From assembly GCA_040387935.1 (NCBI GenBank), contig JAZKCU010000027.1:9474-73473 (forward strand): a stretch of DNA of 64,000 nucleotides, given 5' to 3'. The notes below the pieces were generated by a model. It ran no database searches and was not told where the DNA came from. It worked only from the letters and a program-made list of their open reading frames with translations. The number at the start of each line of letters is the position of its first letter. Position 1 is the first letter of the stretch. The stretch comes from Verrucomicrobiota bacterium (lineage in GTDB: Bacteria; Verrucomicrobiota; Verrucomicrobiia; Verrucomicrobiales; Verrucomicrobiaceae). This document shows positions 14,408 through 62,342 of the stretch, one piece after another. The position numbers were made by a program, and so were the translations under genes.

Positions 14408-14439
14408 AGTGAGAGCTTCTGCTTCCATGTGAACTTGAA

Positions 14440-14467
14440 GGCACCGGTGATCCCGGTGCCTTTTTTT
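14440..14467 (+). terminator. rho-independent terminator (ggcaccgg-tgatc-ccggtgcc + TTTTTTT)
   Basis: Perfect 8-bp stem plus a 7-T run, 33 bp after the DUF4340 gene stop. Confidence 0.8.
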
Positions 14468-14563
14468 GTCCGGGTTTCACCTCATGCCAGGGGCCTGTTT
14501 TCACGTGACGCTCTTGTTGGAATTCGTGGCGCTTGCGCCACATTCCGGCAAACCACCACCGCC

Positions 14564-17500: not shown

Positions 17501-17884
17501 GCCAAGGAAGGCAGCCAGGTGGGCCCCATCTTGAAGACCATCGGCGGTCAGCGCACGCGCGTGGAGCTTTTGGAATCCTTGGTGAATCCCGTGGCCAAGA
17601 TCGTGCCGGGTTATGGCCTCGTGTCGATCACACTCAAGGATGGGAGCAATATCGCTGGAGCGCTGGCGAAGGAGGACAAGACCACGGTCACCATCCGTCT
17701 CGCTGATGGCACGGAGAAGAAGGTGCAGCGCGCCCAGGTCACCATGCAGACACCTCCAGTGTCCATGATGCCACCGATGCTCGGCATCCTCACGCCGCGT
17801 GAGATCCGTGATGTGGTGGCCTACCTGAGTAATCTGAAGCCCAGCAAGAGCAAGACTTCAGCAAAGGCCAAGGACGAGCACTGA
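14564..17884 (+). CDS. PVC-type heme-binding CxxCH protein (putative membrane-bound dehydrogenase domain + HEAT repeats + C-terminal cytochrome c motif)
   Basis: Signal peptide MRNLLLCLLLANAASA. Beta-propeller-like N-terminal region, then an Ala/Leu-rich HEAT-like middle. C-terminal NCLACHTVEAKEG is a single CxxCH. Confidence 0.65.
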   Translation: MRNLLLCLLLANAASAAEVTLHRWSGALNVPDPVACTVDEKGRVYVAATTRRKAGDLDIREHPMWIPDDVGLSSVEEKREFLKRELAPGKLRLPRGGLKDHNKDGSIDWKDLTVHSEKIFQLRDTDGDGTADKMTTFAEGFNTEVTGIAAGILYHDGWVYCTIAPDLWRLKDTDDDGVADVREVVAHGFGMHIAYAGHDMHGPRLGLDGRIYWSIGDKGVNVMSKEGKQWLYPHEGAVMRVEPDGSGFEVFAHGLRNVQEVAFDDFGNMFGVDNDADMPGEKERFVYITELSDSGWRCSHQYMKAESRWMRESIWQTPGTVVEAGELAKPAASYPLFVTPPLANYSNGPAGFVYEPGTALGPHLRGHFILDQFPSGKMEAFKITPKGSAFEMSRARLINSGIMGIGLSFGPDGGLYMADWVGGYPLDEKGAIWRVDEDAKAAADPARLETQKLLSAGFKKIESADLQIMLANLDQRVRLGAQLELVSRKAWDVLAEVLEDGKAPLLAKLHAIWGIGIGMRHGDTGDAALLPHLSSAEPEVQTQIIKVLGDAPGKADEESRIALRGLITSKNTRVRFYAAIAAGKLQLSIAEDALWTMAAQEAGDAWMRHAVVTGLTGSATAESLAKRITDSSRNVRIAAVLALSRQHSALIVPALADRDSAMVDEAARAIHDDTGIPEAMPQLADLLDEEAVHTDVTTRRAINANLRLGKVENAQRLLKFALAKDQAPAFAAEAFASLLVFNEPPVLDRVDGHNRRYPARDAAAIAAVVQPRVADLLALSDADLKAAGIELMVKLALKVDAPALRSIIADDKAKPSQRVGALRLMAAQHSGDAAFAETLTLAAAKTSPVELRTESLAQTFTHQKERAVPEASRVLEQGSIPEKQAALKLLSADTSEPSVTLMDTWLQRLAAGKVDSSLKLDVIEAAQAFPKLAERLASYQQSRTTAPRDDLIDGGDAANGKEVVTNHLGANCLACHTVEAKEGSQVGPILKTIGGQRTRVELLESLVNPVAKIVPGYGLVSITLKDGSNIAGALAKEDKTTVTIRLADGTEKKVQRAQVTMQTPPVSMMPPMLGILTPREIRDVVAYLSNLKPSKSKTSAKAKDEH

Positions 17885-19884: not shown

Positions 19885-22869
19885 TTGCCCATGCTGAGAC
19901 CTCTCGCACTCGCCCTCACTGCCGCTTTGCCTGCGGCTGCCGTCGATTTTGTCAAAGATGTGCAGCCCATTTTGAGAGAGCGCTGCCATGCCTGCCATGG
20001 TGCGAACAAGCAGGAGGCGGCCCTGCGCCTGGATCACAAGCCGAGCGCGCTGAAGGGCGGCGACTTCGGGCCCGCCATCAAGCCCGGGCACAGTGCGGAT
20101 TCCGTGCTCGTTCATGCCATCGAGGGGCGTAATCCCAAGCTGCGCATGCCGCGCAAGGGCGATCCGCTCTCCAGCGCTGAGATCGCCACGATCAAGGCAT
20201 GGATCGATGCTGGAGCCGAGTGGCCGGAAAGCGCCAGCGTGAAGCTGGAGACGAAGGTGGATCACTGGGCCTTCAAGCCGCCGGTGAAGCCGAAGGTGCC
20301 CGATGTGGGTGTGAGGCACCCGATTGATGCCTTCATTCAGGATCGTCTGGCGAAGGAGGGGCTGAAGCCTGCGCCGAAGGCTTCTGAGGACAAGCTGGTG
20401 CGTCGTTTATATCTAGATCTTGTGGGACTGCCGCCGGAGATCAATGAGACCCATGGGTCTCATAAGACCTATGAGGAGCAAATCGACAAACTCCTCCAAT
20501 CCCCGCACCACGGCGAGCGCTGGGCACGCCATTGGCTGGATGCGGCACACTACGCGGACTCAAACGGCTATGAAAAAGACCCCATGCGCTTCATCTGGTT
20601 TTACCGCGACTGGGTGATCAATGCCTTCAATCGTGATCTGCCCTATGACCAGTTCATCATCCAGCAGATCGCTGGCGACCAGCTTCCGAAGGCCACGCAG
20701 GACCAGATCGTGGCCACGGGATTTCTGCGGAACTCGATGATCAATGAGGAGGGTGGCATCGATCCCGAGCAGTTCCGCATGGAGGCCATGTTTGACCGCA
20801 TGGACACCATCGGCAAAAGCGTGCTCGGCCTCACCATCGGGTGCACGCAGTGTCATAACCACAAGTATGACCCGATCTCGCAGGAAGAGTATTACCGCAT
20901 GTTCGCCTTCCTGAACAATGACAACGAGCCCTGGCGCGTGGTCTACACGGGCAGCGAGCAGATGCAGCGCGCGCAGATCCTGCAGCGCACCCGCGAGCTG
21001 GAGGAGATGCTGAAGCACCACAACCCGGACTGGCAGGCACGCATGGCTGAGTGGAAGAAGGCTCTCAAACCACAGCCCATGTGGACCACGCTGACCTTTG
21101 AAGAAGACACCAGCGGTGGTGAAAAGGCCCTGCGCCAGCCCGACGGCAGCATCCTGGCCCAAGGCTACGCCCCAACCAAAAGTGAGGTCAAGTTTGTGGT
21201 CAAGGTGGGGCACGCTTCCAGCTTACCCGGTGCAACCAAGATGGTTGCACCGCCTACCATCTCCGCCTTCCGCCTGGAACTGCTGAATGATCCCAACCTG
21301 CCCGCTTATGGCCCAGGTCGCTCCCAGAAAGGCACCGCCGCGCTCACCGAGTTCACCGCCACGATGAAGATCGATGGCAAGGAGACCACACTGAAGTTCA
21401 CCAAAGCCACCGCTGATTTCGGTGAACCTGAAAACACACCGATCCCGGGCTTTGCCATGGATCAGGACACGGCGAAGGACAAGCGTGTCACGGGCCCGAT
21501 CGCCTACGCGATCGATGGCAAGGCTGACACCGCCTGGGGCATCAATGCAGGCCCGGGCCGACGCAATGTGCCGCGCAACGCGGTGTTCGTGCTGGAGAAG
21601 CCCATCGAGGTCAAAGCCGACTCCGAATTGACCATCGGCCTCAGCATGAAGCACGGCGGCTGGAACAGTGACGACCTGCAGACCATGAACCTCGGTCGAT
21701 ATCGCATCAGCGCCACCAGCGCGGCCGATGCGGAGGCTGACCCGCTCTATGGCAAGAAGGCAGAGTTCCCCGTCTTCCGTCAAAGCGTGGCCGATTGGAA
21801 GAGCGTGAATGACGAGATCGAAGCGCTGTGGAAGCAGCACCCCGAAGGCAGCACCACGCTGGTGCTGGATTCCCGTGATGAGCCGCGCATGACCAGCCTG
21901 CTGAAGCGTGGCGACTTCCTCAAGCCGGGCGACCGCGTGAGCACGGGTGTGCCGTCCATGCTGAACGCGCTGCCAAAGAATGCCGACAGCTCACGCCTCA
22001 CCTTTGCCAAATGGCTGGTGTCCCGTGATGCACCCACCACGGCGCGTGCCTTTGTGAATCGTGTCTGGCAGTCCTACTTCGGCATCGGTCTGGTGGAGAC
22101 GCCGGAGGACTTTGGCATCCAAGGCGCGAAGCCAAGTCATCCGGAGCTGCTCGACTGGCTGGCGTGCGAGTTCATGGAACACGGCTGGAGTGTGAAGCAT
22201 CTGCACAAGCTCATCGTCACCAGTCACACCTACCAGCAGGACAGCCGGGTCACGGCTGAACTGCTGGAGAAGGACCCTTACAACCGCCTGCTCGCACGCG
22301 GCCCGCGCTTCCGTGTTGAAGGCGAGATCGTAAGAGACATCCAACTCGCCGTCAGCGGCCTGCTGAATGACGAGGTCGGTGGTCGTGGTGTCATGCCTCC
22401 TGCGCCGGAGTATCTTTTCCAGAAGCCGGTGAGCTATGCGCCCTTTCCCTGGAAGGTGGAGGAGACGAACCAAAAGTATCGCCGCAGTGTGTATGTATTC
22501 CGCCGTCGCAGCACCCCCTATCCCTTCCTGAGCACCTTCGATGTGCCGAACGGTGAGGCGAGCTGCATCAAGCGCGCCCGCAGCAACACCCCGCTGCAAG
22601 CCTTGATGACCCTCAATGAAACCCTGAGCCTCGAAGCTGCCGAGAAACTGGCCCAACGCATGACCGAGGCCGGCAAAGGCGATGACAAGGCCGCCATCGC
22701 CCACGGCTTCCAGCTCTGCACCTACCGCCAACCTAACGAAAAGGAGTCAGGAATTCTGCTCTTTCTCCTCCATCAACAGCGAAAAGACTCCAACACCGAA
22801 AGCCTGCCACCAATGACCACAGTCGCAAGAGCCCTGCTAAACCTGGACGAGACAATCACGAAGGAATAG
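19885..22869 (+). CDS. PSCyt1 / DUF1549 / DUF1553 domain protein (Planctomycete-type cytochrome c family)
   Basis: Signal peptide, then N-terminal CHACHG (PSCyt1). A second Cys-containing segment is GCTQCHNHKYD. Length of 994 aa is typical of the family. Confidence 0.75.
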   Translation: MPMLRPLALALTAALPAAAVDFVKDVQPILRERCHACHGANKQEAALRLDHKPSALKGGDFGPAIKPGHSADSVLVHAIEGRNPKLRMPRKGDPLSSAEIATIKAWIDAGAEWPESASVKLETKVDHWAFKPPVKPKVPDVGVRHPIDAFIQDRLAKEGLKPAPKASEDKLVRRLYLDLVGLPPEINETHGSHKTYEEQIDKLLQSPHHGERWARHWLDAAHYADSNGYEKDPMRFIWFYRDWVINAFNRDLPYDQFIIQQIAGDQLPKATQDQIVATGFLRNSMINEEGGIDPEQFRMEAMFDRMDTIGKSVLGLTIGCTQCHNHKYDPISQEEYYRMFAFLNNDNEPWRVVYTGSEQMQRAQILQRTRELEEMLKHHNPDWQARMAEWKKALKPQPMWTTLTFEEDTSGGEKALRQPDGSILAQGYAPTKSEVKFVVKVGHASSLPGATKMVAPPTISAFRLELLNDPNLPAYGPGRSQKGTAALTEFTATMKIDGKETTLKFTKATADFGEPENTPIPGFAMDQDTAKDKRVTGPIAYAIDGKADTAWGINAGPGRRNVPRNAVFVLEKPIEVKADSELTIGLSMKHGGWNSDDLQTMNLGRYRISATSAADAEADPLYGKKAEFPVFRQSVADWKSVNDEIEALWKQHPEGSTTLVLDSRDEPRMTSLLKRGDFLKPGDRVSTGVPSMLNALPKNADSSRLTFAKWLVSRDAPTTARAFVNRVWQSYFGIGLVETPEDFGIQGAKPSHPELLDWLACEFMEHGWSVKHLHKLIVTSHTYQQDSRVTAELLEKDPYNRLLARGPRFRVEGEIVRDIQLAVSGLLNDEVGGRGVMPPAPEYLFQKPVSYAPFPWKVEETNQKYRRSVYVFRRRSTPYPFLSTFDVPNGEASCIKRARSNTPLQALMTLNETLSLEAAEKLAQRMTEAGKGDDKAAIAHGFQLCTYRQPNEKESGILLFLLHQQRKDSNTESLPPMTTVARALLNLDETITKE

Positions 22870-40911: not shown

Positions 40912-42984
40912 TCACTCAGCTTTTGGAGCTTCGGTCACGGGAGCTGGAGCGGCTTCGTCGGAAGTTTTTTCGGCGCCGGGAGCTTCCACAGGCGCGGCTT
41001 GTTCGGCCACCTCTGTTGGAGTTGGATCGGCGAGGGTTTCTTCGTTGGTCGCTGCAGGCTCTTCAGCAACGGTCGGATCTTCTGCGGCAGGAGCAGCAGC
41101 TTCATCGGCAGCGGTGGCGAGTTCTTCCTCAACAGCTTTCACTTCGCTCGAAGGCGCAGCCTCAGATTCAGTTTCGGGTGTGGACTCGGCGGCTGGAGCA
41201 GCTTCGGCCGATGCTTCATTAGCTTCGGCCGTGGCTTCCTTGGCCTCGGTGCTTTCCACTTCAGCAGAGATTTCAGCGCTCGCTTCTGCATTGGCGACGG
41301 CCGCAGCGGTAGCGGCAGCGGCAGCGGGTGCACTTGGGGTGGCTGGCGCTTTAGGAGCGGCTTGTGGCTCGCCCTGCACACCGAGGAAGACCATGCCGTC
41401 ACTGTATTCGATGACGTAACCTTCGTTGGCGAGCCAGCGGATGTCCTTGATGACAGTGATCTGCTCATCCGTCGGAGCGTGCTTCACGGGAGCAGCGGGG
41501 GCCTCGCCTTCAGCCACTGGGGCAGCTTCGATGACCGGGGATGGAACGATGGACTCCACGAGGTCATGCAGCAGGATGCCAGTCTTGCCTTTGAGGACCT
41601 CCACGAGTTTCGAGACGCGCTCAGAGAAGACCACGCCAGGATCGATGGCCTTTGGCTTCACGCGGCTGACGAAGAGCTTGCCTGCGCGGCGCTTGAAGAG
41701 CTTCAAACCGCGGCGCTCAAAGGTGGCGCCGAGCTTCTGGGACATGTCGAAGAGATGCTTGCGGGCATTCTCCACCGCATGACGCAGCATGATGAAAAGG
41801 ACATGCGTGAGCTTGTTTTTGTCGACGTTGCCAATGACAAGCGCATCACGCTTCTCAGTTACGGCATCATCGGCATGGAAGCGGCGGAAGTGCGCCTCCA
41901 TCTCGGCACGGGAGCTGAAACTCTGCGGCTCGGCACCTTCAGCAGGAGCATCCTTGAGCCAGACCCAGCGGAAACCTTTCTTCTGCTTTTCCTTCCATTC
42001 GGCGACACGCTCTGGAGTTGTGTCCACACGCACGCGGCGCTTGTAGTCTTCCAGCGGCATGTTGCCGAAGCGTTCGCGATGCAGGCGGATGATGGAGGTC
42101 TGGAAGCTGTGATGGCTCGGCGGGCCGAGCAGTTCGCCGCTGAAGCCGCACACGCCGATGCTCTTGAAGTCACCCTTGGGTTCTTCGAGTTCGATCTCCT
42201 CAGCGCGGTAGAAAGTCTCCAGCGCCTTGCCGCGAAGCACATGCTGCACGGCTTCATCACGAGTCAGGAAGAGGCCGCCATCGTTGGTGGCAAACAGGCC
42301 GGATGAGCGCTCGTTGGCGCATTGATAGCGGGCGTGGAAGCGATCTCCCTCTGCCAGCACGAGGCGGGCGGCATCAAACATGCTGAAGGCGTGGCCGGTG
42401 CTGCGGATGTGATTGGCGAGGGCCTCGGCGGACTTGTCTTCCGGCTCGATGACGACTTGCACGTCTTTTGGAATCTCCACCCACTCACGCTGCGGCGGGC
42501 CGCCGCGCTGATCACGGTCACGATCTCCGAAACGACGAGGGCCACCGCGCTGGTCGCGGTCACGGTCTCCCCCGCCACGAGGACCACCACCTGCACCCGG
42601 AGGTCTGCCACCTGGGGGACCATCACGACGCGGAGGCCGCGAGTCGCCACGCGGGCCTGCACCTTGACCAGGGCCGCCGGGGCCGCCTGGGCGAGGTCCA
42701 CCGAAGCCACCACCGGGGGGGCCGTCACGGCGGGGAGGGGGACCATCACGACGGCCCGTAGGCGGGCCGCGACGATCTCCGCGATCTCCAAAACCACCGC
42801 CGCTACGGCGGGGGCCACGGTCTTCCCGCTCTTCAAAGCGGCTAAAGTCTGTGCCAGTGCTTTCTCCAGCTCCAATCGTCGAGACCCATGCAGGCATCAT
42901 GCGCAGAGAAGTCAAATCCACGGCGGCAGAAGCGGCATCGGAATTGGCCGGTGTTTCGGGGGGCATATCGTTTTCGGTCATGAC
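40912..42984 (-). CDS. hypothetical protein with RGG/PGG-rich N-terminal and Ala/Glu-rich C-terminal disordered regions flanking a globular core
   Basis: The ORF 40912-43035 has its likely start at MTENDMPP. About 110 aa of GPRRSGGGFGDRGDRRGPP...-type repeats. The C-terminus is about 120 aa of A/E/P-rich sequence. Confidence 0.45.
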   Translation of the reverse strand, partial: VMTENDMPPETPANSDAASAAVDLTSLRMMPAWVSTIGAGESTGTDFSRFEEREDRGPRRSGGGFGDRGDRRGPPTGRRDGPPPRRDGPPGGGFGGPRPGGPGGPGQGAGPRGDSRPPRRDGPPGGRPPGAGGGPRGGGDRDRDQRGGPRRFGDRDRDQRGGPPQREWVEIPKDVQVVIEPEDKSAEALANHIRSTGHAFSMFDAARLVLAEGDRFHARYQCANERSSGLFATNDGGLFLTRDEAVQHVLRGKALETFYRAEEIELEEPKGDFKSIGVCGFSGELLGPPSHHSFQTSIIRLHRERFGNMPLEDYKRRVRVDTTPERVAEWKEKQKKGFRWVWLKDAPAEGAEPQSFSSRAEMEAHFRRFHADDAVTEKRDALVIGNVDKNKLTHVLFIMLRHAVENARKHLFDMSQKLGATFERRGLKLFKRRAGKLFVSRVKPKAIDPGVVFSERVSKLVEVLKGKTGILLHDLVESIVPSPVIEAAPVAEGEAPAAPVKHAPTDEQITVIKDIRWLANEGYVIEYSDGMVFLGVQGEPQAAPKAPATPSAPAAAAATAAAVANAEASAEISAEVESTEAKEATAEANEASAEAAPAAESTPETESEAAPSSEVKAVEEELATAADEAAAPAAEDPTVAEEPAATNEETLADPTPTEVAEQAAPVEAPGAEKTSDEAAPAPVTEAPKAE

Positions 42985-43288
42985 TGAGGAGCGAAGGGGC
43001 GCGCAGTATGAATGCCTTCGCAAGATTGTCTCCAACTTTGTTACACCTCCCGCTCAGGAATAATGGGAGGGAAAACATGTGGCGCGCGCGCCCTTAGAAC
43101 GCTGCGCAATGAAGACTCCTACTACTTTGGAGTGATCTTTGCGGAAGTGATGCGGGTTTGTGGGTGGTGTGCAGACCGACGTGGTGCTCTTTGGAAGCAG
43201 CCGGGAACTTTATCGCGATGCGGAAACATGGGAGTTTGCCAGTGTCCGGTCACGCCTCTTATAGTTTAGGCTTCCCCCTCCCTTCACC

Positions 43289-53375: not shown

Positions 53376-53680
53376 CGAGCAAATGCTTTCACACTCCCTC
53401 CCGGATGTCCAGAGAGGAATCACTCCCTTATCCCCTAAACGAGCCGCATCCCTGAGATTCCCAGCCCAGCCTCTGCTCGTCAATCGCTCCCCAGCGCCAT
53501 TTTCTCCGCATCTTCCCTATCCGTTTCCTTTTCATCCCTCCCAGATCTCCCTTTTCCCTAACGCCAGACACCTCTTGCCGGATTTCGAACTGAAGAACTT
53601 CCATACAGCGTGGAAAATTGTAATCGCCTCCTCCTGCGTCCGTCGCTTAAATCCCGGTCAATTCAGCCGAACTCCCGAAC

Positions 53681-54343
53681 GTGTTTGAACTCTACCAGGC
53701 CTCCATTTCGCCGCACCAAATCCTCCTCACGCTACTTCTGGCGCTGGTGGTCTTCTATTGGCTCCTCGTCATCTTAGGTGCGCTGGACTTCGAGACCGAC
53801 CTCCCCGACGACTTTGGCGATGGGGGCGGAGATGCGGACGGTGGCATCCATCATGGTCACGGCCACGGCGTGAACACTGGTGGTGCCTGGCTGACCGCAG
53901 GGCGTTTCTTTGGCTTCTCCCAGGTGCCCATCGCCGTCTGGGGCAGCTTCATGATCCTCTTCATGTGGTTCACCTCGCTCGTGCTGAACCAGGTGTGGAA
54001 TCCCGATGCCGACACAGGCCGCGCGCTCCTGCTCGTGCTGCCAAATTTCATCATCAGCGCCATTATCACCAAGATCGTCACCATCCCGGTCGCGAAGCTC
54101 TTCAAGGCCATGGCAGATGCTGACACCGAGGCCGAGGAAGTCATTGGGCGCACCGGCATCGTCTGCTCCATCGAGGCGGACGAGCGCTACGGCCAGCTTG
54201 AGATCAGCGCCATGGGCGTCCCGCTGCTGATCAACGTGCGCACTCTTCCCGGCCAACCAACTTTGCCGAAAGGCACCACCGCCCTGGTCATCTCCGCAGG
54301 CCCTGACCACGCCTACTACTTCATCGAACCTCTCAAATCATAA
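53681..54343 (+). CDS. NfeD/YqiJ-like inner-membrane protein (OB-fold, flotillin partner)
   Basis: Two N-terminal TM segments, a Gly/His/Asp-rich loop and a C-terminal beta-rich (OB-like) domain. Lies immediately upstream of a flotillin gene, as in yqiJ-yqiK. Confidence 0.6.
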   Translation: MFELYQASISPHQILLTLLLALVVFYWLLVILGALDFETDLPDDFGDGGGDADGGIHHGHGHGVNTGGAWLTAGRFFGFSQVPIAVWGSFMILFMWFTSLVLNQVWNPDADTGRALLLVLPNFIISAIITKIVTIPVAKLFKAMADADTEAEEVIGRTGIVCSIEADERYGQLEISAMGVPLLINVRTLPGQPTLPKGTTALVISAGPDHAYYFIEPLKS

Positions 54344-54366
54344 ATCAAAAATCGTCAATCATAAAT

Positions 54367-56448
54367 ATGCACATCCCACCCCTCGCTGTCCTCCTTGAAG
54401 GCAGCATCCTCGTCGGAGTCATCGTCATCGGCATCTTCCTCGGGGTGCTCATCCTCTTCTCGCGGTTCTTCCGCAAGGTCACGCAGGGCCAGGCCATCGT
54501 CCGGAACGGCATTGGCGGCACCAAGGTCTCCTTCAATGGCATGATCGTCATCCCCGTGGCGCATCAGGCGGAGTACATGGACATCTCCGTGAAGCGCATC
54601 GAGATCGAGCGTAAGGCCAATGAAGGCCTGATCTGTAAAGACAATCTGCGCGCTGACATCAAGGTCGCCTTCTTCGTCCGTGTGAACAAAACCCCGGAGG
54701 ACGTCCTCCGCGTCGCCCAGAGCATCGGCTGTGCCCGCGCCAGTGCGGTGGATACCATCCGCGTGCTGTTTGATGCAAAGTTCTCCGAGGCGCTGAAGAC
54801 TGTCGGCAAGCGCTTCGACTTTGTGCAGCTTTACAATGAGCGTGATCATTTCAAAAGCGAGATTCTCAAGGTCATCGGCACCGATCTGAACGGCTTCACG
54901 CTGGACGACTGCGCCATCGACTTCCTTGAGCAGACACGCCTCGAAAACCTCGACCCCGACAACATCCTCGACGCTGAAGGCATCAAGAAAATCACCGAGC
55001 TCACCGCCGCCCAAGCCAAGCTTTCCAACAACATTCAGCGCGACAAGGAAAAGGTCATCAAGCAGCAGGACGTGCAGGCCCGCGAGGCCATCCTGGAACT
55101 GGAGCGCCAGCTCGCCGAGACCGAGTCCAAGCAGAAGCGTGATGTCGAAAGCGTGCGTGCCCGTGAGCAGGCTGAAACCTTGAAAGTGCAGGAAGAGGAG
55201 CGCCTGAAATCCGAGCGCGCCCGCATCACCTCGGACGAGGAAATCGCCGTCGCCACGCAGAACAAAGAGCGCCAAGTCCTCGTGGCCCAGCGCAGCAAGG
55301 AACGCACGGATGCGGTCGAGATCGAGCGCGTCACCCGTGATCGCGACCTCGAGATCATCGAGCGCGAGCGCATCACCACACTCAAGAGCATCGAGAAGGA
55401 AAAGGCGGTCGAAATCGAGAAGAAGAACATCCAGGAGGTCATCAAGGACCGCGTCGCCCTGGAGAAGACCGTGGTCGTCGAGCAGCAGAAGATGAAGGAC
55501 ACCGAGGCCTTTGCCACGGCTGATCGTGAGAAGCAGGTGGCCCTGACCAACGCGGAGAAAAACGCGCAGGAGCAGCTCATTCAAAAGATCAAGGAAGCCG
55601 AAGCCGCGAAGCAGGCCGCCCAGCTCGCTGCCGAGCAGGCCGCCTTCACTTCCATCAAGGCTGCCGAGGCTGCCAAACAGTCCGCCGAGTTGCACGCTCA
55701 GGAGATCCTCACGCTTGCCGAGGCACGCCAGGAATCCGCCGCCAAGGATGCCTCCGCCGAGAAGTCTCTCGCTGAAGGCAGAACCGCCAGTTCCGCCGCC
55801 ATCGGGCTCGGTGAGGCGCAGGTCTTGCTCGCCAAGGCCGATGCCTCGCAGAGACAGGGCACCGTGGATGCCGAGGTCACGCAGCTCAAGCTCGCTGCCG
55901 AAGCCGATGGCATCACGAAGAAAGCGCAGGCCATGAAGCTGCTCGAAAACGCCGGTCGCGAGCATGAGGAGTTCAAGCTCAACCTTGAGAAGGACAAGGC
56001 CATCGCCCTCGCCGAGATCCACATCCAGAAGGACATCGCCGCCGCCCAGGCCGGGGTCCTTGGAGAAGCCATGAAGTCCGCCAAGATCGAGATCGTCGGC
56101 GGAGAAACCCAGTTCTTCGACAAGATCACCAACGCCATCGGCAATGCCCGCGCCATCGACCGCATGGTCGAAGGCAGCCGCACGCTCACGGATGTGAAGG
56201 AGACTTTCTTCAATGGTGATCCCGACTACTTCAAAGCCCAGCTCAAGACCATCATCGACCAGTTTGGCCTAACCAGTGAAGATACCAAGAACCTCACCCT
56301 CAGCGCCCTGTTTGCCAAATTGATCGGCCTCAACCCCGATGCCAGCACTGTGAACAAGCTCACCGGCATGATCGGCGCCGCCTCCAGGTTCGGCCTCACC
56401 GAGCAAACCGTCGCCGGCCTCCTCACCTCGAAGGCGGTGAAGAAGTAA
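54367..56448 (+). CDS. flotillin-family SPFH/band-7 protein (YqiK-like), long form with extended coiled-coil
   Basis: N-terminal TM, an SPFH core (QAIVRNGIGGTKVSFNGMIVIPVAHQ...), then about 400 aa of E/A/K-rich coiled coil. Confidence 0.8.
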   Translation: MHIPPLAVLLEGSILVGVIVIGIFLGVLILFSRFFRKVTQGQAIVRNGIGGTKVSFNGMIVIPVAHQAEYMDISVKRIEIERKANEGLICKDNLRADIKVAFFVRVNKTPEDVLRVAQSIGCARASAVDTIRVLFDAKFSEALKTVGKRFDFVQLYNERDHFKSEILKVIGTDLNGFTLDDCAIDFLEQTRLENLDPDNILDAEGIKKITELTAAQAKLSNNIQRDKEKVIKQQDVQAREAILELERQLAETESKQKRDVESVRAREQAETLKVQEEERLKSERARITSDEEIAVATQNKERQVLVAQRSKERTDAVEIERVTRDRDLEIIERERITTLKSIEKEKAVEIEKKNIQEVIKDRVALEKTVVVEQQKMKDTEAFATADREKQVALTNAEKNAQEQLIQKIKEAEAAKQAAQLAAEQAAFTSIKAAEAAKQSAELHAQEILTLAEARQESAAKDASAEKSLAEGRTASSAAIGLGEAQVLLAKADASQRQGTVDAEVTQLKLAAEADGITKKAQAMKLLENAGREHEEFKLNLEKDKAIALAEIHIQKDIAAAQAGVLGEAMKSAKIEIVGGETQFFDKITNAIGNARAIDRMVEGSRTLTDVKETFFNGDPDYFKAQLKTIIDQFGLTSEDTKNLTLSALFAKLIGLNPDASTVNKLTGMIGAASRFGLTEQTVAGLLTSKAVKK

Positions 56449-56461
56449 GTCACTCCCTCAA

Positions 56462-56980
56462 ATGTTATCAAAGCTTAAAGCCTGCGTTCAGCAGTTTTTA
56501 TCTGAAAGACCGCACAAGGCGGGTGAGACCGTTCAATTCGGCTGGTTCTGGTTTCGCATCGTCGAAGCGGGTTCTCCGCCGGAGATCGAAACCTTGGACA
56601 TGAAAGGCATGGCTTCATTCACGACTGATTTTCATGAAGCTGAGCGCGTTCATCAGGAGCAGTGCCGGATGGTGACTGCCAATGGGGTCGAGGCTGATGA
56701 TTCCATCACCTTGATGCACAGCGCTTTGGTATCGAAGAACTACAGGCCTGGCGTTTCTGATGCCTTCTTGAAGCATGATGAGCCCTCCGGAGGCATCGAT
56801 AGTGGATGGTATGTGGGCATCTACGATGACCCCCTGGATATGGATGATCCGGACTCCTTCCACCGTCAGTCACTCTATGAACTGACCATCCATGACATGC
56901 GCATGGCTCGCTACTGGACTCTGCCTCAAGCTTTCCTGGTTCACCTGGACACCAGCGTCGTAGACGATTTGAGGGAATGA
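56462..56980 (+). CDS. hypothetical acidic, Trp-rich cytoplasmic protein
   Basis: 172 aa, starts 14 bp after flotillin (FGWFWFRIVEAG...). The 3' end overlaps the next gene by 4 nt. Confidence 0.5.
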   Translation: MLSKLKACVQQFLSERPHKAGETVQFGWFWFRIVEAGSPPEIETLDMKGMASFTTDFHEAERVHQEQCRMVTANGVEADDSITLMHSALVSKNYRPGVSDAFLKHDEPSGGIDSGWYVGIYDDPLDMDDPDSFHRQSLYELTIHDMRMARYWTLPQAFLVHLDTSVVDDLRE

Positions 56981-57264
56981 GCCTCCAGCCCTGGAACACT
57001 ATGGCCATCGCCGCTCCATCCGCCCACAGCACGACCTCCTCACCCGAGATTGTGCATCGGGAAATCGTGGTCTTGCTTCCCGATCAGGAGCCGGAGCATT
57101 GGAAAAAAGTGAAGTGGGGCACAACCACAAGAGTCGTCTGGACCGTGATCTCCGTGGTGCTTCATCTCGTGGGCGCATTCTCGGTCTCCGGATGGATTGC
57201 CTTCTTCATCCTTTTGCATCTGGTCTTGTCCATCACCTCCATCTGGCGAGACACCCATGGCTGA
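56977..57264 (+). CDS. small membrane protein (2 TM)
   Basis: 95 aa with an ATGA overlap to the upstream gene. Hydrophobic segments VWTVISVVLHLVGAF and IAFFILLHLVLSI. Confidence 0.4.
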   Translation: MSLQPWNTMAIAAPSAHSTTSSPEIVHREIVVLLPDQEPEHWKKVKWGTTTRVVWTVISVVLHLVGAFSVSGWIAFFILLHLVLSITSIWRDTHG

Positions 57265-57317
57265 AACTCTTTCATCGTCGAACCCCGAAGGGGTTCCGAA
57301 CCTTTATACCGTGTTGA

Positions 57318-60300
57318 ATGGCTGACCCCGCCCCATCTCCCCTCCAGGCCCCGTCCCAGCTCGAAGCTGGCGCTTACGAAGTCATCCGTCAGCGCCTCGC
57401 CAAACACGGCGGCGAGCTCCAGCGCCGTCTCGAATTGCTGAACAACGACCGCAAGGCCGAGTTCGGCGGCATCGAGACCGCCCTGCTCGCCACCACGCGC
57501 CTCACCACGGACAACAACTGCGTTCCGCGTGACATGGCCGCCATCGGCCCGAAACGCTTTTTGTTCGGCTACAACGTCCACCTCGGCCTGCGGACGACGA
57601 TGAAGATCGAGGACGTCTTCTCGGCCTACGACTACCAGGAGGGCGACAATAGCTTCCACACGAACAAGCAGAACCTGCTCGGCGATCCGCAGTTCGCGGA
57701 GGATTTCGCTTATCTCTACAGTTACTACAAGCACGCCACCTTCCTCAAGTTCCACCGCATCGGCCCGCACCTTTACATGGGTTTCCAGGTCGGACAGCGC
57801 GCCACCGAAGTCAAAACCTTCAAATGGCTCGTCGATGACGAGGCGGGCACGCTCAAATACCTCGGCAATCGAAGCGATCACGAGTTCGTCTTCCCCACGC
57901 CGCAGGAGTTTGCGTGGAAGAGGGCCACGCGGGACATGTATCGCCACGGCGTGCATCCGCACATCAGCATCGAGGACCGCGTGTTTGTGGAGACCATCGG
58001 CGGAGATCTCACCGTCAAGGTGGAGAACAACACCGAGACCGGGCGCGGCATCTACAACGAGCCGGTCGACAACAAGGACCAGACGCTCGATGACGCGGAG
58101 GTGCACTACGCCATCGTCGGCAATCTCGTGCTGATGAAGGTGCTGCCGTATCAGGAGAAGCTGTGGCGCCATCTCGTGTTCAACGAGCGCACCCGCGAGG
58201 CTCATCGCATTGACAGCATCGCCGAGAGCTGCGTGCTGCTGCCGGATGATCACGGCATCCTTTTCCCGCATGGTTATGTGCTGCAGACCGGCGAGGTGCG
58301 CCGCTTTGACACGGGCCTGCCGCCCATGCGTTTTGAGAAGCGCATCTCCGCCGCGAATGGTGAGGACACGCTCTACGTCTTCAGCCATCTGGAAAGCGGC
58401 TCCTACCTGCTGCTCAGCTACAATCTCATCACGCAGACCATCGCCACGCCGCAGCCCTGCCACGGCTTCAGCCTCTTCCCCACTGGCGAGCTCATCCTCT
58501 TTGATGCTGATGCCGAGCCGCGCAAGCACCACGTGGTGCAGGTCTGGCGCACGCCCTTTCTCACCGCTGATGTCAGCGAGGCCAAGGCCGCGCAGACCTT
58601 TCTCAGCAAAATTGGTAATGCCGAAATCGTCCGTGCCATGGCCGAGGCACGAGGTGTGCTCACCTTGCTCGCCAAGGATGATTCCTTCTCCGGCCTCTAT
58701 GTCGAACTCGTTCGCACCTGCGGTGACATCGCCGATAGTTACTTTTGGGTAGGCAATGCCGAGGCGCATGACCTCAAGAGCGCACTGCTGGAGATCAAGA
58801 CCACTGCTGAAGCCGCTCTGGCCGAGTTTGAAAAAGTGCGGCGCATGCGCAAGACCGCCGCGGAGCAGACCACGGCTCTTCAAGAGAAGGTGCAGAAAGC
58901 GCTCGGCTCCGCTGCGAACACCGATCCCTCGGACATCCTCGGCTTTGTCCAGCTTCTCACGACTCTGCGGGAGCTGCGCGGCCAGGCCATCTCATTACGC
59001 GATGTTCGTTATACCGATGCGGCCACCATCGACCAGATGGACAAGTCTCTGGCCGAAGGCACAGACAAGCTCAGCGCCAAGTGCGTGACCTTCCTGCTCA
59101 AGCCGGAAGCACTCGATCCTTACCGCAAGCAGATCACCGAGCAGCAGGCCCGCGTGCCGAACCTAGCGAAAGTTACTGAAGCTCAAGAGGTCGAGGAAGC
59201 CCTCGCGAGATCCAGCAACGAGCTGGAGATGCTCACCGCCATCGTCAGCGGCCTGAAGATCCAGGATGCCACCGAGACCACGCGCATCATCGAGGGCATC
59301 TCCACGCTCTTTGCCCAGCTCAACCAGGTGCGCAGCGTCCTGCGCAACCGCCGCAATGACCTCGCGAAATCTGAAGGCGCCGCGCAGTTTCAGGCGCAGC
59401 TCAGTTTGCTCAGCCAGAGCGTGCTGAACTACCTCGAGGTGGCCACCACGCCGGAGAAGTGTGATGAGTCCCTCACCCGCGTGCTGGTGCAGATCGAGGA
59501 GATGGAGACCCGCTTCTCCGACTTCGATGACTATGCGGCCGAGCTCATCAAGAAGCGCGAGGAGGTGCAGACCGCCTTTGAGTCCCGCCGGCAGAACCTC
59601 AAGGATGTCCTGAACCGCCGCTGCAACAGCCTCGGCCAGTCCGCCGAGCGCATCCTCGGCAGCATCCGCAACCGCCTAACCACCTTTGCCAAGCCTGAGG
59701 TGGTCCATGCCTGGCTGGCGGCCGATGCCATGGTGGCGAAGCTGCGCGACCTCCTCGATGAACTCCGCAAACTCGGCGACAGCGTCCGCGCGGATGAGCT
59801 CTCCACACGCCTCAAGACCGTCCAGCAGGATTCGCTGAAGCAGATTCGTGACAAGGCCGAGATCTTCGTCGGTGGCGGAGACCTCATCAAATTTGGCCAG
59901 CACCAGTTCAGCGTGAACAAGCAGCCGCTGGAACTGACCATCCTCCCACGCGATGGCGGTCTCGCCTTCCACCTCACCGGCACACGTTTCTTTGAAAAGG
60001 TCGTCAATGCCGAGCTGGAAACCCAGCGCAGCGTCTGGGATCAGGCCGTCGTTTCAGAGAACAATGAAGTTTACCGCGCCGAATACCTGGCCTGGCAGAT
60101 GCACAAATCTGGCGCGGGTGATGACGTCGCCGCCTTCATGTCCCAGCGCTATCATGAAGGCTACACCAAGGGTGTGCATGACCACGATGCCGCTCTCATC
60201 CTGAAACCGCTGCGTGAGATGGAGCAGGCGCTCGGCCTTCTCCGCCACTCTCCCGCCGCCCGTGGTTGCGCCAGGCTCTTCTGGCACGCCTGGCCTGAGG

Positions 60301-62342
60301 ATTCTGACAAGAAATCCCTCACCGCCCGCATGCAGTCGAAAGGGCGGATGAAGGAGTTGTTAGGCGCTTCTAGCACCGACGTGCCGCGTTCGCTCCTGGA
60401 CTTTGTGGAGCGCGAGTGTCCTCACTCGCAGGCCGGTGACTTGCGGGTGAGGACACCCGCACTCCAGATCGCCGCCTGTCTCATCGACGAGCTCCAGTCC
60501 AAGCATCCGTTTTCACGCTCCGCTGCTGCGATTGATCTCCTGCGCTCTTTCCGCAAGGAGCTCACCGCCAAGCGCGCCACCAAGGATTTTGAAGACACGC
60601 TTGAAGCCCTTTCGTCCGAGTCCTGGCTGGCCTTCGAGATCGCTCTTGAATGGCTGGCGGCGCTCCATCCTTCCGCCGACCGCGGCGTGATCATCGAGAC
60701 CGCTGCCATGGTGGTCGTCAAGGACACACCGCCCGCCGCCACACCTACTGAGCCGCCTTCACAAGCCACCATCACTGGCCTGACCGGTAATCACTCACGC
60801 ATCAGCGAGGCGAAACTCGAGCTCGACTACCATGAGTTCACCACGCGCCTCCAGCGTTATGAAAGGGAAGTCGTGCCTGCCTTTGAAGCCTTCCAGCAGC
60901 TCAAGCATCACCTCGGCGAGACCCGGCGGAAGGATCTGCGTCTGGATCAGTTCAAGGCTGGTGTGCTCAGCTCCTTCGTGCGCAACCGCCTGATCGATCA
61001 AGTGTATCTGCCGCTCATCGGCGCGAACCTCGCGAAGCAGCTCGGTGCTGCGGGCAAGGACACACGCACGGATCGCATGGGCCTGCTGCTGCTCATCTCC
61101 CCGCCCGGCTACGGCAAGACCACGCTCATGGAGTATGTGGCGAGCCGTCTCGGGATCACGCTGGTGAAGATCAATGGCCCTGCGCTCGGCCATCAAGTGA
61201 CCTCACTTGATCCTTCCGAAGCGAAAAACGCCAGTGCCCGCGAGGAAATCGAGAAGCTCAACCTCGCCTTTGAGATGGGTGACAACGTGATGATCTATCT
61301 GGATGACATCCAGCACACGAACCCTGAGTTCCTGCAAAAGTTCATCCCGCTCTGCGACGGCACCCGCAAGATCGAAGGCGTGTTCCAGGGCGAGGCCAAG
61401 ACCTATGATCTGCGCGGCCGCAAGGTCGCCGTGGTCATGGCGGGCAATCCCTACACCGAAGTCGGCGGCAAGTTCCAGGTGCCTGACATGCTCGCGAACC
61501 GGGCCGACACCTACAACCTCGGCGATATCCTCGGCGGCCATCAGGAAGCCTTCAAGGACAGCTACATCGAGAACGGCCTAACGAGTAATTCGACTCTCTC
61601 ACGCATTGCCGCGCGCAGTCATGCGGACGCGCTGGCCGTTTTGAAGATCGCCCAGACCCAAAGCCGCGAAGGCATCGAGTTTGAGGGCAGCTTCAGCGCG
61701 GAGGAGATCAATGACGCCGTCGTCGTCATGGAGAAGCTGCTGCATGTGCGCGAGATCATCCTGCGCGTGAACCAGGAGTATGTCCGCAGTGCCGCCACTG
61801 AGGACGCCTACCGCACCGAGCCGCCCTTCAAGCTCCAGGGTAGCTACCGGAACATGAACAAGATCGCCGAGAAGATCCTGCCGCTCATGACGGATGCCGA
61901 GGTGGCCACCCTCATCGCCGATCATTACCGCGGCGAGGCCCAGACCCTCAGCAAAGCCGCTGAGGCCAATCTCTTGAAGTGGCGTGAGATCAATGGTCTC
62001 GCCACTGAGGCCGACAAGCAGCGCTGGAACGAAATCAAGAGCACCTTCAAGCGCAACCTCCTCACCGGTGGCGCTGGCGAAAACGACCCCATCAACCGCA
62101 TCACCGGCCACCTGAGCGCCTTCACTGCGGGGCTTGAAAAGATTGAGCAAGCCGTCGCCCAACCAACTTTATCGGACATCACCATCGAGAAGCTCCGAAC
62201 CATCATCGAAGCCCTCCGCGCCGTCCCTGTGAACGTCGAGATCAAAGTGCAGCCCGTCGAAAAAGAAGTTGCTGGCGAGCCGCCCATCGACATCGCAAGC
62301 GAGGTCGAACAACCCACGGCTTCGAAGAAGAAAAAGCCCTGA
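57318..62342 (+). CDS. giant (1674 aa) protein: N-terminal beta-rich domain + long helical/coiled-coil region + C-terminal AAA+ (AAA_5/MoxR/McrB-like) P-loop ATPase
   Basis: Walker A LLISPPGYGKTT. Walker B IYLDDIQH. A sensor-like VVMAGNPYTE. The N-terminal ~480 aa are rich in aromatic/beta residues. About 700 aa of helical heptad-like sequence (A/E/L/K/R) lie between. Confidence 0.8.
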   Translation: MADPAPSPLQAPSQLEAGAYEVIRQRLAKHGGELQRRLELLNNDRKAEFGGIETALLATTRLTTDNNCVPRDMAAIGPKRFLFGYNVHLGLRTTMKIEDVFSAYDYQEGDNSFHTNKQNLLGDPQFAEDFAYLYSYYKHATFLKFHRIGPHLYMGFQVGQRATEVKTFKWLVDDEAGTLKYLGNRSDHEFVFPTPQEFAWKRATRDMYRHGVHPHISIEDRVFVETIGGDLTVKVENNTETGRGIYNEPVDNKDQTLDDAEVHYAIVGNLVLMKVLPYQEKLWRHLVFNERTREAHRIDSIAESCVLLPDDHGILFPHGYVLQTGEVRRFDTGLPPMRFEKRISAANGEDTLYVFSHLESGSYLLLSYNLITQTIATPQPCHGFSLFPTGELILFDADAEPRKHHVVQVWRTPFLTADVSEAKAAQTFLSKIGNAEIVRAMAEARGVLTLLAKDDSFSGLYVELVRTCGDIADSYFWVGNAEAHDLKSALLEIKTTAEAALAEFEKVRRMRKTAAEQTTALQEKVQKALGSAANTDPSDILGFVQLLTTLRELRGQAISLRDVRYTDAATIDQMDKSLAEGTDKLSAKCVTFLLKPEALDPYRKQITEQQARVPNLAKVTEAQEVEEALARSSNELEMLTAIVSGLKIQDATETTRIIEGISTLFAQLNQVRSVLRNRRNDLAKSEGAAQFQAQLSLLSQSVLNYLEVATTPEKCDESLTRVLVQIEEMETRFSDFDDYAAELIKKREEVQTAFESRRQNLKDVLNRRCNSLGQSAERILGSIRNRLTTFAKPEVVHAWLAADAMVAKLRDLLDELRKLGDSVRADELSTRLKTVQQDSLKQIRDKAEIFVGGGDLIKFGQHQFSVNKQPLELTILPRDGGLAFHLTGTRFFEKVVNAELETQRSVWDQAVVSENNEVYRAEYLAWQMHKSGAGDDVAAFMSQRYHEGYTKGVHDHDAALILKPLREMEQALGLLRHSPAARGCARLFWHAWPEDSDKKSLTARMQSKGRMKELLGASSTDVPRSLLDFVERECPHSQAGDLRVRTPALQIAACLIDELQSKHPFSRSAAAIDLLRSFRKELTAKRATKDFEDTLEALSSESWLAFEIALEWLAALHPSADRGVIIETAAMVVVKDTPPAATPTEPPSQATITGLTGNHSRISEAKLELDYHEFTTRLQRYEREVVPAFEAFQQLKHHLGETRRKDLRLDQFKAGVLSSFVRNRLIDQVYLPLIGANLAKQLGAAGKDTRTDRMGLLLLISPPGYGKTTLMEYVASRLGITLVKINGPALGHQVTSLDPSEAKNASAREEIEKLNLAFEMGDNVMIYLDDIQHTNPEFLQKFIPLCDGTRKIEGVFQGEAKTYDLRGRKVAVVMAGNPYTEVGGKFQVPDMLANRADTYNLGDILGGHQEAFKDSYIENGLTSNSTLSRIAARSHADALAVLKIAQTQSREGIEFEGSFSAEEINDAVVVMEKLLHVREIILRVNQEYVRSAATEDAYRTEPPFKLQGSYRNMNKIAEKILPLMTDAEVATLIADHYRGEAQTLSKAAEANLLKWREINGLATEADKQRWNEIKSTFKRNLLTGGAGENDPINRITGHLSAFTAGLEKIEQAVAQPTLSDITIEKLRTIIEALRAVPVNVEIKVQPVEKEVAGEPPIDIASEVEQPTASKKKKP

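Follow-up and report, generated by a model that had tools for sequence, protein, structure and literature searches.

The five genes A to E lie in a 64-kb stretch of DNA that was analysed as a whole (the window), and are best explained overall, at roughly even odds (probability about 0.5), as a conserved three-gene membrane module that remodels flotillin scaffolds (A, a YqiJ/NfeD-like protein; B, a flotillin; E, a giant AAA+ ATPase), with C and D as passengers. The link between flotillin and giant ATPase is strongly conserved. Homologue representatives were searched with E residues 1–700, and relatives of E were found in at least 588 species. B lay directly upstream of E on the same strand in 62 of the 65 loci with enough upstream sequence, and A lay upstream of B in 55/62 loci; E had no adjacent flotillin gene in ~5 loci. 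The initial annotation had coupled the giant ATPase gene to flotillin and NfeD, and these counts bear it out: homologues of E do not mostly occur away from flotillin genes, nor is the association confined to one lineage, the triad being present in at least nine phyla (Verrucomicrobiota, Planctomycetota, Bacteroidota, Desulfobacterota, Kiritimatiellota, Clostridia, Pseudomonadota, Actinomycetota and Deinococcota). Annotated records with the triad include Pseudomonas pQBR103, Streptomyces and Deinococcus, and the tractable organisms in which the family is found include Pseudomonas fluorescens SBW25 pQBR103, Proteus mirabilis, Streptomyces, Vibrio and Flavobacterium. Genes A, B and E were the only ones recurring across all phyla. 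Mean pairwise identity over 55 loci was 55% for B and 50% for E, and the pairwise identities of the two proteins were correlated (Pearson 0.85).

An ORF map of the window confirmed the five genes, all on the + strand (Table 1). The untranslated spacers are 23 nt (A-B), 13 nt (B-C), -4 nt (C-D, an ATGA overlap) and 53 nt (D-E), in agreement with the gaps of 24, 14, -4 and 54 given earlier, which had been obtained by subtraction. This tight spacing is compatible with a single transcript for the five genes. On the 5' side the cluster is bounded by a divergent E1-dehydrogenase gene (- strand, identified by Pfam) with its end at 53483. The region between this gene and A is the presumed operon promoter region; a consensus promoter scan found no sigma-70-like site in it, and the sigma-70 scan as a whole was not above chance (1 site vs 2.4 expected from shuffles). 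On the 3' side E is followed by a gap of ~400 nt that opens with a strong hairpin (dG -46.8 kcal/mol, z = -4.94, equally stable shuffles 0/200), which is unique within the window and matched no family in an Rfam search. This stem-loop probably marks the 3' end of the transcription unit and may act as its terminator; the intrinsic-terminator scan (11 sites vs 9.1 expected from shuffles) was not above chance. The flanks of the window are housekeeping genes, with synteny retained in one relative.

Table 1. Features of the cluster, given as positions within the 64-kb window.
Feature	Position	Strand	Basis or remark
Divergent intergenic region, E1-dehydrogenase gene (- strand) to gene A	53484..53680	.	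ORF map, sequence, Pfam of upstream gene
Gene A, YqiJ/YuaF-type short NfeD-like membrane protein, 220 aa	53681..54343	+	hhalign vs YqiJ, TM profile
Gene B, YqiK-type flotillin, 693 aa	54367..56448	+	hhalign vs YqiK, orthologue Band_7 matches
Gene C, acidic Imm33-like protein, 172 aa	56462..56980	+	Pfam PF24719 below cut-off
Gene D, 95-aa protein with two TM-like segments	56977..57264	+	start overlaps C stop (ATGA)
Gene E, soluble DUF3686/DUF7902/AAA+ protein, 1674 aa	57318..62342	+	Pfam, homologues, AF2 models
E residues 33-476, DUF3686: N-terminal helix and ~29-30 beta strands, beta-propeller-like	57414..58745	+	Pfam, AF2
E residues ~428-849, helical-bundle/coiled-coil rod region, including DUF7902 (residues 597-680)	58599..59864	+	
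E residues ~1224-1447, single AAA+ module, MoxR/dynein/midasin type	60987..61658	+	
E Walker A, GYGKT	61107-61121	+	
E Walker B, DD (D1329-D1330)	61302-61307	+	
E sensor-1, N1377; candidate Arg finger, R1395			
Stem-loop directly after E stop codon	62343..62425	+	RNA fold, no T tract

The labels of A and B needed testing because neither protein had a direct match in Pfam or NCBIfam (for B, nothing at E <= 0.1), and PDB sequence searches also returned nothing for either. Gene A has a GTG start and encodes three TM-like segments, an acidic loop and a C-terminal beta-rich domain. A profile of its orthologues aligned to E. coli YqiJ in hhalign (94%, E = 1e-7), with the alignment running through the C-terminal domain, a possible counterpart of the OB-fold partner-binding domain of NfeD; among 15 orthologues YqiJ_N was matched in three and NfeD in one (E = 0.005), and the best PDB profile match was a weak one to the soluble domain of YuaF (2k14, E = 0.34). 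The B protein is laid out as an N-terminal hydrophobic membrane anchor, which is its one TM-like segment, an SPFH domain, a long Glu/Ala/Lys-rich coiled coil and a C-terminal domain. Its orthologues are 52–63% identical across phyla, are named 'flotillin family protein' or YqiK in database sources and in 3/15 cases match Band_7 (best E = 7e-14). Comparison of the B orthologue profile with E. coli YqiK was decisive (hhalign 99.95%, E = 1e-38, 33% identity over 383 columns). Both labels of the initial annotation, NfeD/YqiJ-like for A and flotillin for B, are thus upheld, the former by the YqiJ profile comparison together with the three TM-like segments.

The E protein is, as first proposed, a giant P-loop ATPase, with a single AAA+ module in its 1674 residues. 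Its Pfam matches were DUF3686 (E = 1e-179), DUF7902 and AAA/AAA_5, and the TM profile showed no TM segment. AF2 models, made for two halves of the protein, had a pLDDT of 86. In Foldseek the N-terminus matched the clathrin terminal domain, WD40 and YCF48 propellers (E = 1e-6 to 1e-4, TM <= 0.34). The AAA+ fold was closest in structure comparison to the MoxR-type remodellers CbbQ and NorQ, and this fold together with a beta-hairpin insertion before sensor 1 places E in the MoxR/dynein/midasin clade. No VWA domain was found in E by Pfam or among the scanned neighbour proteins. Walker A, sensor-1 and the candidate Arg finger are invariant among E homologues. Walker B departs from the canonical hhhhDE, the motif YLDDIQH being invariant across 46 diverse homologues; an invariant Asp-Asp rather than Asp-Glu at this site suggests that hydrolysis by E may be slow or regulatory. 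Some homologues carry the JGI name 'phage shock protein A', which we rejected as a coiled-coil artefact since hhalign against the operon-linked PspA family gave 0.2%.

The triad is not new. From genome comparison, and without experimental function, Ravi et al. (mSystems 2024, preprint 2020; PMC11237479) described an operon of a YqiJ/YuaF protein, a Band-7/flotillin protein and a 'beta-propeller + coiled-coil + AAA+' protein, with its prototype in Dokdonia donghaensis around ANH61663.1, and proposed for it a role in sub-membrane complex assembly. The version in Bacteroidota is joined to CesT/Tir-PspA, and 'abbreviated' operons without this dyad were explicitly recognised, with the suggestion that they act with PspA encoded elsewhere (PMC11237479). 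The cluster described here has the same three core proteins, order, strand and E domain plan: a first-encoded 3TM YqiJ/YuaF-type protein, a flotillin and, downstream on the same strand, a propeller/coiled-coil AAA+ protein. It differs in that the dyad and a PLD gene are absent and in that an Imm33-like gene and a 2-TM singleton are added between flotillin and ATPase. No PspA or CesT_Tir homologue was found anywhere in the 64-kb window. In the Bacteroidota loci we found CesT_Tir_1 and PspA_IM30 upstream (13–15 loci), together with an HTH/S24 regulator, and the Flavobacteriia loci had the full published order (divergent HTH-protease, CesT_Tir, PspA, YqiJ, flotillin, AAA+). We conclude that the cluster is an abbreviated form of this operon. 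The view that no known SPFH operon carries a giant P-loop ATPase and that the architecture is uncharacterised does not hold, the same type having been published (PMC11237479). Our literature search found no experimental work on the E family (DUF3686/PF12458) and none linking pQBR103 or MoxR to flotillin/SPFH.

Genes C and D are lineage-specific local insertions and not part of the conserved core. Both were missing from all 80 related loci (L001–L080) in jackhmmer searches, so that the earlier description of an operon extended by three extra genes is right for E and wrong for C and D. The nearest relatives have either B and E directly adjacent or the order A-B-C-E without D, as in the close relative L084; close relatives lacking both genes have B and E 33–64 nt apart, and in several related Verrucomicrobiaceae C still separates B from E. 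The protein encoded by C is acidic as first noted (29 D+E vs 15 K+R), its description as Trp-rich being overstated (4 Trp). It scored 22.2 bits against Pfam PF24719, under the gathering cut-off of 27, and a precomputed match to this family was present on nearly all of 58 C homologues, down to 42% identity. No cognate toxin gene was found near C, and its distant homologues sit in other contexts, namely unrelated small-gene arrays. For D the two TM-like segments of the initial annotation were recovered; the protein had no relatives, forming a cluster of one among ~15 billion proteins. The B-E junction is a variable slot that holds unrelated selfish genes in other lineages: its spacer exceeded 300 nt in 30/69 loci, vs 1/57 for the A-B spacer, and it was occupied elsewhere by unrelated small genes including transposases, toxin-antitoxin pairs and nucleases, with ParE toxin, AbiEii, DUF559, PDDEXK_3 and Imm33-like genes as the conflict-type occupants. 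C and D would thus have been inserted into a permissive junction as passengers, probably co-transcribed with the operon and standing outside the machine.

Of the functions considered for the triad, the most likely is to remodel flotillin membrane scaffolds at the expense of ATP when the envelope is under stress. On the cytoplasmic side of the inner membrane B, aided by A, would form large SPFH cage or dome assemblies. E would oligomerise through its AAA+ ring and use its propeller and rod domains to dock on them, a physical contact with B that is predicted from gene order. Powered by ATP, it would then build, reshape or take apart the flotillin scaffold or the scaffold's clients, which in Bacteroidota might also include PspA polymers. 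Remodelling by E would form part of an envelope-stress response or of membrane maintenance, with a logic resembling that of HflK/C-FtsH, or of ESCRT-III/PspA with their ATPases. The DD Walker B, the lack of a VWA partner among the scanned neighbour families and the loci without flotillin count against E as a MoxR-type remodeller of flotillin. A more speculative and rather doubtful extension is that the triad constitutes a bacterial ATP-driven scaffold cycle, in which a megadalton MoxR-type ring with clathrin-like 'propeller + rod' arms assembles or strips flotillin cages (and PspA polymers); if true, E would fill a long-standing gap as the energy-dependent regulator of flotillin microdomains in bacteria. 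In a bolder variant, the module would serve a membrane-damage or abortive-infection response, and this would explain the repeated capture of toxins, immunity genes and nucleases by the B-E slot.

The same evidence bears on other readings of the cluster. That all five genes build one dedicated machine, with C and D as adaptors linking flotillin to the ATPase, would fit their common strand, the very short spacers with the 4-nt C/D overlap and the retention of C in related Verrucomicrobiaceae. We consider it very improbable given the absence of C and D from 80/80 related loci, including close relatives in which B and E nearly abut, the singleton status of D, the relation of C to an immunity-protein-like family with other members in unrelated small-gene arrays, and the filling of the same slot elsewhere by transposases, toxin-antitoxin pairs and nucleases. 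Another reading makes the cluster a defence against phages or an abortive-infection system, with flotillin as membrane scaffold and the giant NTPase as sensor or effector; the initial annotation had likened its build to that of membrane-associated phage-defence and stress systems. The architecture of a large NTPase plus membrane protein, the repeated attraction of conflict-type genes to the B-E slot, the cI/LexA-like HTH-S24 regulator adjoining the Bacteroidota versions and the copy on a Pseudomonas megaplasmid speak for it, but A to D had no matches in PADLOC-DB 2.0 and E had marginal ones (LmuB coiled-coil, E = 6.5e-5 and 4.4e-4; mad8 P-loop, E = 0.0067). No homologue was present among 50,697 phage records, and the 13 matches in 72,556 plasmid records were mostly to megaplasmids, chromids or chromosome-sized records. 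Pfam detected no nuclease, protease or pore effector domain in E, the flanks are housekeeping genes with synteny kept in a relative, and B and E are 50–55% identical across phyla, unlike fast-evolving, patchy defence genes. The defence-like reading is therefore unsupported, and we regard it as improbable.

Public annotation would make E a DNA repair ATPase whose adjacency to flotillin is incidental: NCBI names E homologues 'DNA repair ATPase', in Pfam DUF3686 bears the description 'ATPase involved in DNA repair', weak P-loop matches of E to RuvB were seen, and a LexA/cI-type HTH-S24 regulator accompanies the operons of Bacteroidota. Yet E has no detected DNA-binding, helicase or nuclease domain and no specific similarity to a repair ATPase; we found no basis for the label in the present analysis and hold this reading to be extremely improbable. 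It is possible, though still unlikely, that the main client of E is something else than flotillin, for example PspA/ESCRT-III-like polymers or a membrane protein complex, with flotillin and YqiJ serving as recruiting platform only. In Bacteroidota and Pseudomonas the operon also includes PspA and a CesT/Tir chaperone, which points this way, as do the maturation or remodelling of specific client complexes by MoxR-type ATPases, with CbbQ and NorQ as the best structural matches, and the proposed use of PspA encoded elsewhere by abbreviated operons (Ravi et al., PMC11237479). PspA was linked in only 15/80 loci, however, with none in the window, and the sole partners that accompany E universally are A and B.

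The part played by flotillins in organising bacterial membrane microdomains has been widely studied, and to our knowledge no factor that consumes energy to build or take down flotillin assemblies has been described. E is an obvious candidate for such a factor because its co-inheritance with flotillin and YqiJ extends over at least 588 species in at least nine phyla, with B and E conserved at 50–55% identity between phyla. Since the family occurs in tractable organisms, the remodelling hypothesis is directly testable. The window itself is modest in value, as one more instance of a described module with two passenger genes.

Placement of a flotillin gene after that of an NfeD-like membrane protein is a feature that the cluster shares with E. 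coli yqiJK and B. subtilis yuaF-floT-yuaI. In E. coli K-12, by contrast, what lies beyond yqiK is sib/ibs loci and hldE and no giant ATPase, and YqiK is shorter than B (553 aa vs 693 aa). MoxR proteins have ~270–500 aa and usually work with a VWA partner. Compared with the MoxR remodellers CbbQ/CbbO, NorQ/NorD and RavA/ViaA, E is far larger, carries propeller and rod domains, has DD in Walker B and has no VWA partner that we could find. PspA/ESCRT-III with its ATPases (Vps4; PspF regulation) resembles the proposed system in linking a membrane-scaffold polymer to an AAA+ protein, and PspA is itself genetically linked to the triad in Bacteroidota and Pseudomonas. SPFH proteins form cages, HflK/C enclosing the AAA+ protease FtsH and flotillin forming 44-mer domes (PMC11260169, PMC13000311). 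Unlike E, which is soluble, MoxR/dynein-like and devoid of a protease domain, FtsH is a membrane-anchored protease of the classical AAA clade. HflK/HflC-FtsH resembles the triad in combining, at the inner membrane, an SPFH scaffold and an AAA+ machine, the contact in our case being predicted from gene order, and by this analogy it is the best-established precedent for the proposed logic.

Five plus-strand ORFs, which the initial annotation had read as one flotillin/NfeD operon ending in a giant ATPase, were recovered by the ORF map at exactly the positions first reported (genes A–E, see table), with spacers of 23 nt (A-B), 13 nt (B-C), –4 nt (C-D) and 53 nt (D-E). A 2-oxoacid dehydrogenase E1 alpha/beta pair lies upstream of A in divergent orientation. 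Downstream of E there is a gap of roughly 400 nt, which opens with a very stable stem-loop, the single instance of its kind within the window. This stem-loop matched no Rfam family, and promoter and terminator consensus scans of the window returned nothing above chance; co-transcription of A–E is therefore rated as plausible from the spacing alone. The metagenome-assembled genome lies near Brevifollis and Prosthecobacter (protein match 100% to an NCBI MAG, 91% to Brevifollis gellanilyticus). The window also encodes a giant surface or secreted-type protein with no relation to the flotillin-ATPase operon (three RCC1-like propeller regions, several bacterial Ig-like domains; WD40_RLD E-value = 6.5e-149), and two PVC-typical large proteins, one with DUF7133, HEAT and cytochrome c, the other with PSCyt1/PSCyt2/PSD1 (DUF1549/DUF1553, 'Planctomycete cytochrome C'), which fit the Verrucomicrobiota origin of the window. 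A further ORF of 707 aa had no Pfam match at E-value ≤ 1e-4.

Coordinates of the operon and of other features, counted within the window
Feature	Position (nt)	Strand	Description
Gene A	53681-54343	+	YqiJ/NfeD-like, 220 aa, GTG start
Gene B	54367-56448	+	YqiK-type flotillin, 693 aa
Gene C	56462-56980	+	Imm33-like, 172 aa
Gene D	56977-57264	+	two TM-like segments, 95 aa
B-E slot	56449-57317		cargo includes Imm33-like C
Gene E	57318-62342	+	giant ATPase, 1674 aa
E residues 33-700	57414-59417		region compared with the PDB by Foldseek
E Walker B	61302-61307		D1329-D1330
Stem-loop	62343-62425		directly 3' of E stop codon; -46.8 kcal/mol, z = -4.9; no T tract
Giant ORF	2451-8936	+	2161 aa
PVC-typical large proteins	14429-17884, 19885-22869	+	two proteins
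ORF without Pfam match	40912-43035	-	707 aa

Neither A nor B matched a Pfam or NCBIfam model directly, and a sequence search of the PDB gave no match to B, so the labels 'NfeD' and 'flotillin' needed testing. Profiles of both were built from orthologues collected in other phyla. The B profile aligned to E. coli YqiK with an hhalign probability of 99.95% (E-value = 1e-38, 33% identity over 383 columns), and Pfam Band_7 was matched by 3/15 B orthologues (best E-value = 7e-14). The A profile aligned to E. coli YqiJ (hhalign 94%, E-value = 1e-7); among 15 A orthologues YqiJ_N was matched by three and NfeD by one, and the top PDB match was a weak one to the YuaF soluble domain (E-value = 0.34). A carries three TM-like segments; the single one in B is an N-terminal anchor. 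On these comparisons B belongs with the YqiK-type flotillins and A resembles YqiJ.

With each species represented by a single genome, at least 588 species proved to carry a relative of E, and E residues 1–700 matched 648 clusters at the 50% identity level (E-value ≤ 1e-10); complete family members are typically 1600–1900 aa long. Eighty loci around such relatives, from Verrucomicrobiota, Planctomycetota, Bacteroidota, Desulfobacterota, Kiritimatiellota and Clostridia, were searched by jackhmmer on six-frame ORFs. A flotillin gene lay immediately upstream of E on the same strand in 62/65 loci whose upstream sequence spans at least 2.5 kb, and a YqiJ-like gene was found in 55 of the 62 with at least 4.5 kb. 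A few loci had no adjacent flotillin gene (L031, L044, L055, L018, L070). The A-B-E triad was also present in annotated records of Pseudomonas fluorescens pQBR103, Streptomyces and Deinococcus. In all-against-all clustering only A, B and E recurred across all phyla. B and E stand out by their unusual conservation: mean pairwise identity across 55 loci was 55% for B, 50% for E and 29% for A, and the B and E identities correlated with each other. Given this adjacency, multi-phylum spread and conservation of B and E, E homologues are neither mostly remote from SPFH genes nor confined to one lineage. We conclude that the A-B-E linkage is near-obligate and multi-phylum, and that flotillin and the giant ATPase are indeed coupled, as proposed, in an association both ancient and widespread.

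Of the three genes initially taken as extensions of the operon, only E is conserved with flotillin; C and D are local insertions, with no homologue of either in the 80 related loci. C is acidic and weakly matches an Imm33-like immunity-protein family (22.2 bits vs a cut-off of 27), and nearly all of its homologues (N = 58) carry a precomputed Imm33-like domain match. D clusters with no other sequence in a set of about 15 billion proteins. In close relatives, B and E are 33–64 nt apart (L001, L005), D is missing from an A-B-C-E arrangement (L084), or C is kept with upstream synteny as in the window (L086). More distant C homologues occur either among arrayed small genes of one strand, adjoining an integrase, or near DUF4926 and NOV_C genes, flotillin being absent from these neighbourhoods. 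Spacers longer than 300 nt were seen at 30/69 B-E junctions vs 1/57 A-B junctions (Fisher p about 1e-8), which makes the B-E junction a hotspot for insertions. The cargo consists of small, mutually unrelated, mostly co-oriented genes: PDDEXK_3 (GxxExxY) nucleases, IS200-like Y1 transposases, DUF559, a ParE toxin with antitoxin, AbiEii, DMP19-like and SHOCT proteins, and lipoproteins. Because C and D are absent from the 80 loci and the B-E spacer is variable with unrelated cargo, the operon comprises three core genes and a slot that permits insertions, and does not form a five-gene machine. Selfish and conflict genes are tolerated or attracted at this one junction.

E is soluble, with no TM segment in its profile, and its ATPase has a MoxR/dynein-type fold. 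Pfam matches were to DUF3686 (E-value = 1e-179), DUF7902 and AAA/AAA_5. AlphaFold2 models of residues 1–700 and 701–1674 (mean pLDDT ~86 each) predict an N-terminal helix followed by ~30 beta strands (residues 55–411), helical bundles up to ~residue 850, a small beta domain, a helical domain, a single AAA+ module (~residues 1224–1447) and a C-terminal helical domain. Walker A (GYGKT), sensor-1 N1377 and the candidate arginine finger R1395 are invariant in homologues. Walker B is Asp-Asp (YLDDIQH) in 46/46 diverse aligned homologues instead of the usual Asp-Glu, which could point to ATP hydrolysis that is slow or regulated. Foldseek placed clathrin heavy chain (terminal propeller and leg) first among the PDB matches to the N-terminal half, and other coat-like propeller-plus-helical proteins (IFT-A, Nup) were also matched. 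Since TM-scores were low (≤ 0.34) and the helical part resembles spectrin/BAG three-helix bundles, any coat-like analogy is only a lead.

NCBI calls the members of the E family (P0001–P0120) 'DNA repair ATPase', and some carry the JGI name 'phage shock protein A'. The latter name was rejected as a coiled-coil artefact, because the family shows no PspA similarity (hhalign 0.2%). A role as a DNA repair ATPase is very improbable; the case for it is limited to the Pfam text for DUF3686 ('ATPase involved in DNA repair') and a sub-threshold P-loop similarity to RuvB. Domain, profile and fold comparison support neither name, and both are therefore likely propagated mis-annotations.

HflK/C, QmcA-YbbJ and eukaryotic flotillins are established examples of SPFH cage or dome assemblies. 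By analogy, B, with A, would assemble such structures on the cytoplasmic side of the membrane; E would form oligomers via its AAA+ ring, dock by means of the propeller and rod domains, and spend ATP on building, remodelling or taking apart the scaffold or its clients. Envelope stress would be the setting, to judge from linkage to PspA, CesT/Tir and polyamine genes in other phyla and from Ravi et al. We put the probability that E is an ATP-dependent remodeller of the flotillin scaffold or its clients in envelope stress at roughly one half. That flotillin only recruits E, which would then have a different client, for example PspA, seems unlikely, at about half that weight. Phage defence by the A-B-E module is less likely still: conflict-type cargo recurs in the slot and a cI/LexA-like regulator occurs, but PADLOC matches were marginal only, no copies were found in phage records, plasmid matches came from just 13/72,556 records (mostly megaplasmids, chromids or chromosome-sized), conservation is high, and the operon is flanked by housekeeping genes in the window.

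E, widespread and strongly conserved, is a candidate for the energy-dependent partner of bacterial flotillins. A long version of the module is carried by pQBR103, a well-studied experimental megaplasmid of Pseudomonas fluorescens SBW25 (L088, NC_009444.1 85452-100861), with genes for PspA, a rhomboid protease, DUF2491, DUF350, DUF1190, glutathionylspermidine synthase, a YqiJ-sized hypothetical protein, an SPFH protein and a 1748-aa 'DNA repair ATPase'. E homologues also occur in Proteus mirabilis, Vibrio campbellii, Streptomyces and Deinococcus records; these organisms and the pQBR103 host are tractable for tests of E function.

The initial view that giant ATPases are absent from known SPFH operons was incorrect, since Ravi et al. 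(mSystems 2024, PMC11237479; bioRxiv 2020) already describe such operons, with a CesT/Tir-PspA dyad as one component and the Dokdonia gene order in their Table S3. Comparative genomics has thus already documented the operon type, which was not discovered in this window; our literature search found no experimental study of the giant ATPase. In 13 Bacteroidota loci (L039, L041, L042, L048, L050, L054, L057, L062, L063, L067, L075, L077, L079) a minus-strand HTH_3 + Peptidase_S24 gene, divergent from the operon and about 4.3–6.4 kb upstream of the E start, encodes a LexA/cI-like regulator of the self-cleaving type, which hints that the operon is de-repressed when a cleavage signal, RecA-type or other, arrives. 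Flavobacteriia and Cytophagia loci, ordered HTH_3 + Peptidase_S24 (divergent), CesT_Tir_1 (E-value = 2e-56), PspA_IM30 (E-value = 1e-40), YqiJ-like, flotillin and E, reproduce the operon of Ravi et al. exactly. No PspA or CesT/Tir gene was found in the window, and its operon is therefore an abbreviated form of theirs.
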